Shown one piece after another: positions 14,670 through 33,988 of a stretch of DNA of 37,591 nt. The stretch covers positions 1-37,591 of the forward strand of contig DAOWLG010000001.1 in NCBI GenBank assembly GCA_030643485.1, read 5' to 3'. Position 1 is the first letter of the stretch. Every line of letters begins with the position of its first letter. Both the position numbers and the translations under genes were made by a program. This DNA is from Candidatus Nealsonbacteria bacterium. GTDB taxonomy: Bacteria; Patescibacteriota; Minisyncoccia; Minisyncoccales; JAGMDC01. The notes beneath the pieces are model-generated. The model ran no database searches, was not told where the DNA came from, and was given only the letters and a program-made list of their open reading frames with translations.

Positions 14670-15443
14670 TTAAGATCCCCGACGATTTACTTGATTTAGT
14701 TCTTTTGCGAACTCTTGATCAGACATTTTAGAAAAATCTTTTTTTATTGAGCCGTCAGAACGAGCTGATGTGCCGCCTGATTGTGATTCTTTAGCTTGTT
14801 TATCAGCATTTCTTGCTAGATGTGCGCCAATTTGTAATAAATCTTTGCCTGCGGCTGAATATGCAAGCTGCTCAATGGGAAGATTTTTATAAACGGGGTG
14901 TTTCCCCCATTTAATTATTTTTTTGTAGAAGGGTTTAAAAATAGGATTTTCTCCGACAAAATCTTTTGTGTCTTTTTCAAGTTGATTTATTTCTGAATTT
15001 TCTTGAGTTTGGCGTATCAGATCAAACTGGTCGCCATATTTATTTAATATATATTCATCAATCCGCTCTTTTTCTTTCTCTTCCAAACTTAAATTTGGGT
15101 TTTCTTCTCCCCGTCCTTCCAATTTAGCAATTTCTGCGTCCAATTCGGCTAGTTTTTTTGTTCCTGTTTTATTCTTCAATTTCTCTATTTTAGCTTGTTT
15201 TCGCTCAATTATATAAGCTAAATTATTTTTTCTTGTTGGAGGTTCTTCTCCTTCAGGGGGTGTTTGTTCTCCTTCAGGGGGTGTTTGTTCTCCTTCAGGG
15301 GGTGTTTGTTCTTCTCCTTCGGGGGGTGTTTGTTTTTCTCCTTCGGGGGGTGTTTGTTCTTCTCCTTCGGGGGGTGTTTGTTCTTCTCCTTCGGGGGGTG
15401 TTTGTTCTTCTCCTTCGGGGGGTGTTTGTCCTGGTTCTAACAT
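14670..15443 (-). CDS. Scaffolding protein with N-terminal QTPPEGE(E) tandem repeats
   Basis: 257 aa, charged and helical, located between portal and capsid genes. Eight or nine Pro/Glu-rich repeats at the N-terminus. Confidence 0.6.
   Translation of the reverse strand: MLEPGQTPPEGEEQTPPEGEEQTPPEGEEQTPPEGEKQTPPEGEEQTPPEGEQTPPEGEQTPPEGEEPPTRKNNLAYIIERKQAKIEKLKNKTGTKKLAELDAEIAKLEGRGEENPNLSLEEKEKERIDEYILNKYGDQFDLIRQTQENSEINQLEKDTKDFVGENPIFKPFYKKIIKWGKHPVYKNLPIEQLAYSAAGKDLLQIGAHLARNADKQAKESQSGGTSARSDGSIKKDFSKMSDQEFAKELNQVNRRGS
15241..15433. repeat. 21/24-bp coding tandem repeat (ggggg(g)tgtttgttct(tct)ccttc)
   Basis: About nine near-identical units visible in the sequence; they encode the QTPPEGE(E) repeats. 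Confidence 0.9.
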
Positions 15444-27116: not shown

Positions 27117-27293
27117 TTATATTTTAAATTCGATTTTATGTTTTATAGCCTTTTCTATTTCCTTTTGAATCAAAGAAAGAGGCTGGAAGCTCAACTGTTT
27201 TTTTAATTCTTGGTTTTCTTGTTCAAGTTTTTGAATTAAAATTTGTTGTTTTAAAATTATTCTAATTCTGTTATCTTGTTCAAGGTTTTTCAT
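27117..27293 (-). CDS. Small coiled-coil protein (below the ORF-track size cut-off)
   Basis: Hand translation: MKNLEQDNRIRIILKQQILIQKLEQENQELKKQLSFQPLSLIQKEIEKAIKHKIEFKI (58 aa). It fills an otherwise empty gap. Confidence 0.35.
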   Translation of the reverse strand: MKNLEQDNRIRIILKQQILIQKLEQENQELKKQLSFQPLSLIQKEIEKAIKHKIEFKI

Positions 27294-27444
27294 TATTGAT
27301 TTTATTTAGAAAATTTTTAAATTGTGTTGGTTTAAAATTTCCACAAACAGTACAAGGTTCACATACCCAAAACTCCCCCGTTAATCCAATTTTTTTAGCA
27401 CAATCTTCACAAATTGCATAAGTTTCTTGAGCTATTTTTTCCAT
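27280..27444 (-). CDS. Small zinc-ribbon protein
   Basis: Starts at the internal Met MEKIAQETYAICEDCAKKIGLTGEFWVCEPCTVCGNF; has CxxC and CxxCxxC motifs. Confidence 0.4.
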   Translation of the reverse strand: MEKIAQETYAICEDCAKKIGLTGEFWVCEPCTVCGNFKPTQFKNFLNKINNEKP

Positions 27445-28171
27445 TATCAAAAATATTAAAAAATAATTTAGCTTCATCTCTGATTTCCCAATTTTCATCT
27501 GTTTTTGTTTTTTCTGGAAACCCTAAAGTTCTAAAAGCCTCAAGCCTAATTGTGCAATCTTCATCTTTTTTTGCTTTTTCCGTAAATCCTAAATTTCGAT
27601 AAGCTGCTAATCTGATATCAGTGTCTTTATTTGATTTTGCTTTTTCATCAAAACCTAAAATTCTAAAAGCTTCAAATCTGATTTTATAAAAAACATCGGA
27701 TTTTGCTTTTTTCGTAAAGCCTAAAATTCTAAATGCTTCGAGTCTAATTCCCCAATATTCATCTTTTTTAGCTTCTTCGGTAAAGCCTAAAATTCTAAAA
27801 GCTTCAAATCTAATATCAATGTCTTTATCTGATTTTGCTTTTTCATCAAACCCTAAAATCCGAAAAGCTTCAAATCTAATATCAGTGTCTTTATCTGATT
27901 TTGCTTTTTCATCAAAACCTAAAATTCTAAAAGCTTCAAGCCTAATTGTGCAATCTTCATCTTTTTTTGCTTTTTCCGTAAATCCTAAATTTCGATAAGC
28001 TGCTAATCTAATTTCCCAATTTTCATCTTTTTTTGCTTTTTCTGTAAAACCTAAATTTTTAAAAGCTTCAAATCTGATTTCATCGTTTTTATCTTTTTTT
28101 GCTTCTTTTGGAAAAAGGCTTATACAAGCTAGTTTTTCTTGAAAAGTTAAATCTTCATATTTTTTTTTCAT
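27407..28171 (-). CDS. Tandem 22-aa repeat protein (HEAT/PBS-lyase-like), paralog A
   Basis: 254 aa with about nine units of consensus KAK(K/S)D(E/K)(D/N)x(E/D)IR(L/F)EAFR(I/N)LGF(T/D)E. The D..xIRxxAxxxLG core resembles PBS-lyase HEAT-like repeats, but the period is 22 aa. Confidence 0.6.
   Translation of the reverse strand: MKKKYEDLTFQEKLACISLFPKEAKKDKNDEIRFEAFKNLGFTEKAKKDENWEIRLAAYRNLGFTEKAKKDEDCTIRLEAFRILGFDEKAKSDKDTDIRFEAFRILGFDEKAKSDKDIDIRFEAFRILGFTEEAKKDEYWGIRLEAFRILGFTKKAKSDVFYKIRFEAFRILGFDEKAKSNKDTDIRLAAYRNLGFTEKAKKDEDCTIRLEAFRTLGFPEKTKTDENWEIRDEAKLFFNIFDNGKNSSRNLCNL
27541..28009. repeat. 66-bp coding tandem repeats, including an exact 73-bp duplicate
   Basis: 27541-27613 is identical to 27937-28009, an offset of 396 bp (6 x 66). 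Confidence 0.9.
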
Positions 28172-33355: not shown

Positions 33356-33988
33356 TTATATTTGATATTTTTTGCAAAACGCTTGGATATAATCGGCTTT
33401 TTCTTGGTATTGTTTTGTCCCGATTTTTCTAGCTATTTTTTTAATTTTGGAAAATAAGTCCGCCTCATCTTGAATCCAATACCATTCCTTTTTCAACGCT
33501 TTCTTCGTAAATCCTAAAATCCGATAAGCTTCAAGTCTGATTATGCAATCTTCATCTCTTTTTGCTTCTTCGGTGAATCCTAAATTTCTAAAAGCTTCTA
33601 ATCTGATACTAGGGTCTTCATCTGTTTTAGATTTTTCATTAAATCCCAAATTCCTAAATGCTTCTAACCGAATCTTGTAAAGAACGTCTCTTTTTGCTTC
33701 TTCGGTGAATCCTAAAACTCGATAAGCTGCGAGTCTGATTTCCCAATTTTTATCTTTTTTTGCTTTTTTATCAAACTCTAAATTTCTAAATGCTTCTAAC
33801 CGAATTTTATAAAAAACATCGGATTTTGCTTTTTTCGTAAAGCCTAAAATTCTAAAAGCTTCTAATCGAACTTCATCGTTTTTATCAATTTTAGCTAATT
33901 TCGGAAAAAATTTTATTCCAGCCATTTTTTGAAAGCGGTCTAAAGAAAACCAAAATTTTTGTTTTTCGGTTGGGAATAATACGCACAT
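33356..33988 (-). CDS. Tandem 22-aa repeat protein (HEAT/PBS-lyase-like), paralog B
   Basis: 210 aa with about seven units of the same consensus as 27407-28171. An exact 53-bp stretch (33804-33856) is shared with 27681-27733. Confidence 0.6.
   Translation of the reverse strand: MCVLFPTEKQKFWFSLDRFQKMAGIKFFPKLAKIDKNDEVRLEAFRILGFTKKAKSDVFYKIRLEAFRNLEFDKKAKKDKNWEIRLAAYRVLGFTEEAKRDVLYKIRLEAFRNLGFNEKSKTDEDPSIRLEAFRNLGFTEEAKRDEDCIIRLEAYRILGFTKKALKKEWYWIQDEADLFSKIKKIARKIGTKQYQEKADYIQAFCKKYQI

Follow-up and report, generated by a model that had tools for sequence, protein, structure and literature searches.

Shortened, 22-residue HEAT-like repeats in a phage-borne protein family that probably forms protein-binding solenoids

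Two genes of a phage, here called A and B, encode proteins built from tandem units of only 22 residues, which raises the question of what kind of repeat this is and what such arrays do for the phage. The stretch of DNA analysed (hereafter, the window) comprises 37,591 nucleotides of contig DAOWLG010000001.1, assigned to a Candidatus Nealsonbacteria bacterium (GCA_030643485.1). It is a fragment of a phage genome, with genes for a large terminase, a portal, a PD-(D/E)XK exonuclease, and a major head protein (phrog_1357, E 8.8e-75). Every long open reading frame (ORF) of the window is on the minus strand, and the GC content is 33%. Genes A and B lie within its replication and recombination modules.

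Gene A (27407–28171, minus strand) is an ORF for a 254-aa protein of 22-residue HEAT-like repeats. The protein begins with an N-cap (residues 1–21, MKKKYEDLTFQEKLACISLFP; 28109–28171, minus strand), continues with nine canonical units, A1–A9, of 66 nt (22 aa) each (residues 22–219; 27515–28108, minus strand), and ends with a degenerate tenth unit that forms the C-cap (EKTKTDENWEIRDEAKLFFNIF; 27449–27514, minus strand) and a 13-residue tail. The original prediction, made from the DNA letters, had described tandem 22-aa units with the consensus KAK(K/S)DxxxxIR(L/F)EAFR(I/N)LGF(T/D)E, and this description was correct: the nine canonical units follow one another in perfect register. Tandem Repeats Finder reported 9.6 copies of a 66-nt period (score 556), together with an additional higher-order period of 198 nt. 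The paralog that had been placed 5.2 kb away is gene B (33356–33988, minus strand), which starts 5185 bp beyond A and encodes 210 aa: an N-cap related to that of A is followed by six canonical units, then by a degenerate cap unit and a tail of 45 residues. In the wider family (see below), the N-cap motif Y.DL...EKLAC(I/V)SL(F/Y)P is kept within one subfamily (P0002, P0005, L007, L008, L009, L026, and L089), and the C-cap motif IR.EA..(Y/F)F is family-wide. From our own reading of the two sequences, which have neither a signal peptide nor a membrane segment, proteins A and B are probably cytoplasmic. A zinc-ribbon ORF overlaps the 3′ end of gene A, and its similarity to a zinc-ribbon domain fused to the repeat array of a relative (L010) was not significant. 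Scanning the surroundings of A for promoters and terminators gave no informative signal.

Profile searches place the repeat in the HEAT superfamily. Protein A scored 39.2 bits against Pfam HEAT (PF02985; cut-off 23.5) and 30.9 bits against HEAT_2 (PF13646; cut-off 27.7), protein B scored 29.7 bits against HEAT_2 and 28.3 bits against HEAT, and among 127 relatives, 82 matched HEAT_2 and 80 matched HEAT at E <= 0.01. The HEAT match covers positions 10–25 of the 31-position profile only, corresponding to its helix-B part. When PDB sequences were searched with phmmer, the matches were designed alphaRep proteins, aligned with a 9-residue gap opened in each unit. A three-unit profile built from 12 family members, which was used both against PDB chains and to search for loci, matched alphaRep chains at E 1.9e-17 to 1e-10. 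In this comparison 41 query columns span 50 residues of the alphaRep chain, so that nine residues are missing per unit, and the missing residues are the helix A segment of alphaRep (..IGDERAVEPLI..). The helix-B-only Pfam match and the 9-residue gap together indicate a HEAT-like unit whose helix A has been reduced to roughly a single turn. The original prediction had recognised a PBS-lyase HEAT-like core (D..IR..A...LG) with a period of 22 rather than about 30 residues; the HEAT and HEAT_2 cut-offs and the alphaRep profile match bear out the former, and the period proved to be rigid and family-wide, arising from the 9-residue shortening of helix A. The repeat is HEAT-like, yet it has neither the unit length nor the full helix A of HEAT and PBS-type units; a HEAT unit proper pairs two complete antiparallel helices over 30–47 residues. 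We hold this structural and family assignment with high confidence. At the superfamily level, annotation as a ‘HEAT repeat protein’ is correct, and none of Pfam, PHROGs, and NCBIfam has an entry dedicated to the A/B family.

The closest comparison is with the thermostable HEAT-like repeats of the alphaRep/Mth187 type (IPR004155; PDB 3LTJ, 4JW2, 4ZV6, 8AW4), of which the designed alphaRep proteins are idealised versions. The signature K-D-E-D-x-x-(I/V)-R-x-x-A-x-x-x-L-G, with the helix-B pattern D-x-D-x-x-(V/I)-R-x-x-A-x-x-x-L-G, and a full helix B are common to both, both carry N- and C-cap units, and in both the variable residues occupy equivalent helix-B positions, which in alphaRep form the binding face. 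However, the alphaRep unit is 31 residues long and contains a complete helix A (..ERAVEPLIKAL..), whereas the unit described here has 22 and has lost nine helix A residues. It carries a conserved Tyr/Phe at position 16, where alphaRep has Ala, and a conserved aromatic at position 21, where alphaRep is variable. The A/B family is restricted to phages, unlike alphaRep. Canonical HEAT proteins (PF02985; PP2A A subunit, importin-beta) are likewise alpha-solenoids of helical hairpins, and the HEAT cut-off is passed here, but their units are about 37–47 residues long with two full helices, whereas the present proteins are small, with 2–19 units.

LRV proteins (PF01816; Azotobacter vinelandii, PDB 1LRV) have 24-residue repeats in which alpha- and 3-10 helices alternate, forming a right-handed superhelix, and we take this to be the nearest architecture to a 22-residue unit. 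Both periods are short (24 vs. 22 residues), and both units combine one long and one very short helix and carry a D....VR..A-like motif, although the class of the short helix in our model comes from DSSP ‘H’ only. In sequence, however, the A/B family falls outside LRV: neither Pfam LRV nor HEAT_PBS (PF03130) matched A or B at E <= 1, neither matched any of the 127 relatives, and 1LRV appeared neither among the PDB profile matches, taken to E 10, nor among the first 50 Foldseek matches. A literature search turned up no account of a HEAT-derived repeat of 22 residues, nor any of the A/B phage family. For the repeat proteins of the window, PHROGs gave nothing below E 0.008 and NCBIfam gave no significant match. 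A Pfam Holin_SPP1 match of 22.6 bits, under its cut-off of 27, was set aside as an effect of composition.

Structure prediction with AlphaFold was unusable from the single sequence of A (pLDDT 45). With the 127-sequence alignment, pLDDT reached 90–98 over residues 1–125 (90–97 in the N-cap) and 46–67 in the C-terminal half, the latter probably because shorter homologs are aligned onto the first units. In the confident half, DSSP shows a 5-residue helix (positions 1–4) alternating strictly with an 11-residue helix (positions 9–19), separated by a loop at positions 5–8 and a G-aromatic-T turn at 20–22. D6, in the loop, immediately precedes the long helix and G20 immediately follows it, positions that would suit helix-capping residues. 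Foldseek searches of solved structures returned alphaRep chains as the best matches (E 4.5e-3, TM 0.27–0.38, rmsd 6–14 Å) and none with the same overall geometry, for a model of which half is of low confidence. The suggestion that the short period makes a distinct solenoid agrees with the helix lengths in the confident half of the model. Against BFVD nothing was significant; the best match (E 0.24, TM 0.69 relative to the target) was to a protein of 106 aa from Acinetobacter phage 133.

To describe the family, we searched 1.84 billion cluster representatives with HMMER, which yielded 203 proteins at E <= 1e-3, of which 79 had E <= 1e-10. In the best 150 of these 203 relatives, 193 of 225 motif spacings were 22 residues and 13 were 44. 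Twenty loci were found in IMG/VR and 79 in metagenome contigs, and some contig names mention brine, groundwater, and activated sludge. Viral contigs gave no match when searched with the single A protein; the three-unit alignment did find loci. The exact A protein was not found in the contig index. Among 185,579 species genomes there was one locus, a count that is a lower bound because the scan used one peptide pattern; it is in a Treponemataceae metagenome-assembled genome, among apparently chromosomal genes. The family was absent from 50,697 GenBank phage records searched by tblastn with A and two other members, the other members giving at most a 25% match, to an Acinetobacter phage protein of the ordinary HEAT type. 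A megablast search with 14.6 kb of the window likewise had no match among GenBank phages. The family is rare and almost phage-only.

Within the unit, conserved and variable positions are clearly partitioned. Positional entropy, computed over 406 and 607 units, identified an invariant framework (A3, D6, I/V11, R12, A15, Y/F16, L19, G20, an aromatic at 21, and T22), and was highest at positions 10, 18, 9, 5, 7, 17, 8, 14, and 13 (in that order). On the model, the variable positions map to the loop that leads into the long helix, to the first turn, and to one face of this helix. In alphaRep libraries, positions 18, 19, 22, 23, 26, and 30 are randomised for binding (PMC3754942). The first five correspond to unit positions 9, 10, 13, 14, and 17, and alphaRep position 30 corresponds to unit position 21, the aromatic that is conserved in the family. 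The aromatics at 16 and 21 may replace the core contribution of the lost part of helix A. Among the units of the window, synonymous divergence is high (pS 0.56 at framework codons), as in an old array, whereas pN at these codons is 0.03, a sign of strong purifying selection. At positions 7–10, pN was 0.50 and pS 0.70; this ratio of about 0.7, a crude estimate that does not exceed 1, is compatible with either relaxed constraint or positive selection.

Gene number and repeat number both vary across the family. Two or more paralogs are present in 25 of the 99 loci, although most contigs are 1–3 kb long. One locus (L004) has 11 consecutive tandem genes with conserved caps and 3–10 units each, and another (L013) has four paralogs, one of which has an open frame of 524 codons that contains at least 19 units. 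By the strict motif, complete genes contain 2 to 11 units. The repeat-number variation for which a survey of related phages had been proposed was seen between two loci from different samples (L008 and L011), whose flanks are 99.7% identical over >10 kb: their genes encode 176 and 132 aa, a difference of exactly two units. As the units concerned are almost identical, this difference might in principle stem from assembly.

Traces of recombination are also evident inside gene A. An exact internal copy of 73 bp had been reported from the sequence; the copy is real and its length is 74 bp, with 27540–27613 (second half of A8 and first 41 nt of A9) identical to 27936–28009 (second half of A2 and first 41 nt of A3). 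As had been stated, the copies are six units apart (396 nt = 6 x 66). A 44-bp exact tract (27632–27675; end of A7 and start of A8) recurs at 27896–27939 (end of A3 and start of A4), at an offset of four units, and a 53-bp tract is common to both genes (27681–27733, end of A6 and start of A7, encoding ..GFTKKAKSDVFYKI; 33804–33856, end of B1 and start of B2). In 1000 column-preserving shuffles, no in-register exact run exceeded 36 bp within A or 42 bp between A and B. The three tracts of 74, 44, and 53 bp are longer than every shuffle maximum, which points to gene conversion. Of the proposed recent unequal recombination or gene conversion, recombination was upheld, in the form of a mosaic of short conversion tracts, and a single six-unit unequal crossover was not. 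Such a crossover or block duplication is rejected because identity drops at once on one side of the 74-bp tract, because unit A8 is a chimera whose first part comes from A4 and second half from A2, and because the adjacent 44-bp tract has a four-unit offset.

On a rival reading, the exact duplicate, and with it the repeat number of gene A, would be an artefact of assembly through collapse, expansion, or chimerism between strain variants. We checked this in k=31 Logan contigs from the probable source run, a cold-seep metagenome that contains 92% of the sampled words of the window. The short-read contigs are broken throughout the array, and unitig depth in gene A is uneven (10.5 to 33.9), which could mean strain heterogeneity. 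However, all four distinct junctions of the 74-bp copies (both left and both right) are present at a depth of 15–21, near the genome depth of about 20, and the shared 74-bp core has a depth of 33.9, close to the sum of two copies, compared with about 20–21.5 in its flanks. The units between the copies have a depth of 10–23, compatible with one traversal. Taken together, the junction, core, and intervening depths fit two real copies traversed once, and contig depth at k=31 supports this duplication, as a consistency check rather than independent proof because the assembly itself was probably built from this run. Furthermore, 74 bp is less than an ordinary Illumina read, so reads would span the tract, a 204-bp contig from a second sample is colinear with 27623–27826 apart from two differences, and gene A keeps an open frame in which purifying selection acts on the framework codons. 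An assembly artefact is therefore very unlikely.

Genomic context provides a setting for the family. The neighbours across its loci include AAA_24, PolA, PolB, SSB, RecT, PD-(D/E)XK, and RNase H genes, and in one locus (L001) the family gene is directly upstream of RecT. A tally of neighbours over the loci revealed no single conserved partner gene, so context points to no particular target. Locus L010 is related to the window in its packaging genes (terminase and portal 51% identical, a segment of the major head protein 58%), and its family gene is located just upstream of them, as in the window. Among longer relatives, the only extra domain found is PcfJ-like, in a diverged member, and it gives no functional clue.

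The best overall explanation, and in our judgement the probable one, is that A and B are protein-binding solenoids. They would be small cytoplasmic alpha-solenoids of a PBS-lyase/alphaRep-type HEAT-like unit shortened from 31 to 22 residues, in which the invariant framework would hold a rigid stack and the aromatics at 16 and 21 would fill its core. Positions 5, 7–10, 13, 14, 17, and 18 would then form a continuous variable surface much like the randomised binding face of alphaRep, and the proteins may bind a protein target stoichiometrically in the early or replication phase of infection. New specificities could arise by repeat gain and loss, by short-tract conversion within and between paralogs, and by paralog amplification. 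The role as a protein binder is somewhat better than an even proposition. That the target comes from the host, for example a protein of defence or one subverted in takeover, is a more tentative choice, which we would put at less than even. It is the best guess given the restriction to phages, the accessory distribution, and the rapid turnover, which favour counter-defence or host takeover. The binder or anti-defence idea, already raised in the original prediction, fits the pattern of variation, the expansion of paralogs, and the genomic position. Searches of PADLOC, PHROGs, and NCBIfam gave no match to an anti-defence family. Over 48 residues, B (E 1.2e-5) and A (E 1.4e-3) matched the candidate PADLOC family PDC-M18A, which we interpret as a shared repeat motif and not membership.

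The position of the genes also invites the reading that A and B serve the phage's own machinery, as adaptors, chaperones, or scaffolds for the RecT-like annealing protein, the PD-(D/E)XK exonuclease, or the replisome. Both in the window and in relatives the genes lie inside replication and recombination modules, and the RecT-adjacent locus, together with AAA_24, PolA, PolB, SSB, and RecT in the tally of neighbours, favours this reading. However, no particular neighbour is kept across loci, a housekeeping adaptor would not be expected as 2–11 divergent paralogs, and neither a change in repeat number between 99.7% identical phages nor a hypervariable surface would be expected of one. The absence of the family from the GenBank phage records also means that it does not perform a core function. 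We consider a phage-internal role improbable, and less probable still that the arrays are modular nucleic-acid readers, contacting one base or phosphate per unit through positions 7–10 in the manner of TALE, PUF, or PPR proteins, or binding DNA non-specifically like AlkD. The most variable residues do occupy the loop and the initial turn leading into the long helix, a position formally similar to that of the repeat-variable residues of TALE proteins, and proteins A (pI 8.65) and B (pI 9.64, net charge +16) are basic, with a lysine-rich short helix. Across the family, however, pI ranges from 4.7 to 9.6, and many members are strongly acidic (pI 4.7–5.3, net charge down to -17), among them the majority of the 11 L004 paralogs. 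The short-helix lysines become F/L and D in other subfamilies, and neither Foldseek nor the PDB profile search gave a structural or sequence match to TALE, PUF, PPR, or AlkD. The range of pI implies no single kind of target. We reject DNA mimicry as a general function, the proteins of the window being basic.

Virus-encoded repeat proteins with a comparable way of life include the ankyrin-repeat host-range proteins of poxviruses, which expand by a ‘genomic accordion’, and the ankyrin-repeat proteins of sponge-symbiont phages; both are used against hosts. Like the A/B family, these are solenoid binders with variable paralog number, rapid turnover, and recombination. They differ in repeat type and have no sequence relation to it, and the host-directed function demonstrated for them is proposed for A and B by inference. 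On a further-reaching interpretation, which we regard as possible but doubtful, the family would be a phage-encoded natural repertoire of minimal solenoid binders directed at variable host immune proteins, a natural counterpart of the engineered alphaRep and DARPin libraries. Its new specificities would come from shuffled units, from conversion over short tracts, and from amplified paralogs (as many as 11 genes in tandem), and its 22-residue unit would be a distinct geometry, the smallest-known HEAT-derived solenoid. A bolder variant of the repertoire idea would have each unit read nucleic acid singly through its hypervariable loop, as in TALE proteins.

If the proposed binding role is true, the tiny cap-delimited solenoids would be phage accessory proteins of a class not described before, with a specificity surface that evolves by repeat shuffling, a mode not documented for phage counter-defence. 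If the proteins instead prove to be inert scaffolds, what remains is an elegant case of a repeat gene undergoing concerted evolution. The 22-residue unit also offers protein engineers a shorter natural HEAT-like scaffold with about nine variable positions per unit. Because the family is at best annotated as ‘HEAT repeat protein’ and is invisible in cultured phages, its definition would aid the annotation of environmental phages. At the Treponemataceae locus, we read the neighbouring genes, from their translations rather than by family search, as encoding a methyl-accepting chemotaxis protein with a long coiled signalling region and a 795-aa sensor kinase.

The largest paralog array among the loci seen was found in contig locus L004, where 11 genes of the 22-residue HEAT-like repeat family lie in a row on one strand (L004:173-9176), with stop and start codons overlapping between several neighbouring genes. 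The number of units ranges from 3 to 10 per gene across this array; the N-cap (..LCKI.N.KIDP..) is conserved in all 11 genes, as is the C-terminal tail (..EAKKYFELKEKYTKEEAKKIIDLWKLEKL).

The closest relative of the window phage, L010 (L010:42-1059), encodes a fusion of an N-terminal domain of roughly 100 aa, with CxxC/CxxC cysteines, to a repeat array (237 aa), and a stand-alone, near-identical copy of the cysteine domain (106 aa) lies directly downstream of the fusion gene. Ten diverged 22-residue units (DEDAKDDESxxIRKIYYKNNPD) are joined to a PcfJ-like domain (Pfam PF14284, E 8.8e-15) in the 497-aa metagenomic protein P0143; these units have no LG(F/Y)T turn and may represent a sister repeat type.

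The window carries a small Cys4 zinc-ribbon ORF (27280-27444, minus strand), which showed no significant similarity to the L010 cysteine domain on comparison. It overlaps the C-terminal tail of gene A (27407-28171), starting 38 nt ahead of the gene A stop codon, and this overlap may point to translational coupling. The central stretch of gene A (27580-27830) had a unitig depth (k=31, probable source run) of only 10.5-14.8 compared to about 20 in the flanks, a drop that could reflect coexisting variants of differing unit content. Between L008 and L011, phage contigs from different samples with 99.7% identity, a second difference beyond two repeat units is an insertion of about 420 bp (L008:5240-5660 vs L011:8372), which holds two tiny ORFs and is situated directly downstream of the repeat gene.

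The scan of 185,579 cellular species genomes with one peptide pattern, a lower bound, yielded a sole family copy (L006:7935-8549), located on a 198-kb contig of a Treponemataceae MAG. Judging by eye from their translations, neighbouring ORFs resemble normal genes of a chromosome (chemotaxis receptor-like, nucleoside phosphorylase-like, HAD hydrolase-like, and sensor kinase-like), and the copy is not inside an obvious prophage.

Elsewhere in the window, a 24-nt tandem repeat (15242-15429; 8.1 copies, 94% identity) encodes eight (E)QTPPEGE(E) units in the N-terminal part of a 257-aa protein (ORF 14670-15443, minus strand). This gene adjoins the major head gene, and its product may serve as a scaffold or as a decoration protein.
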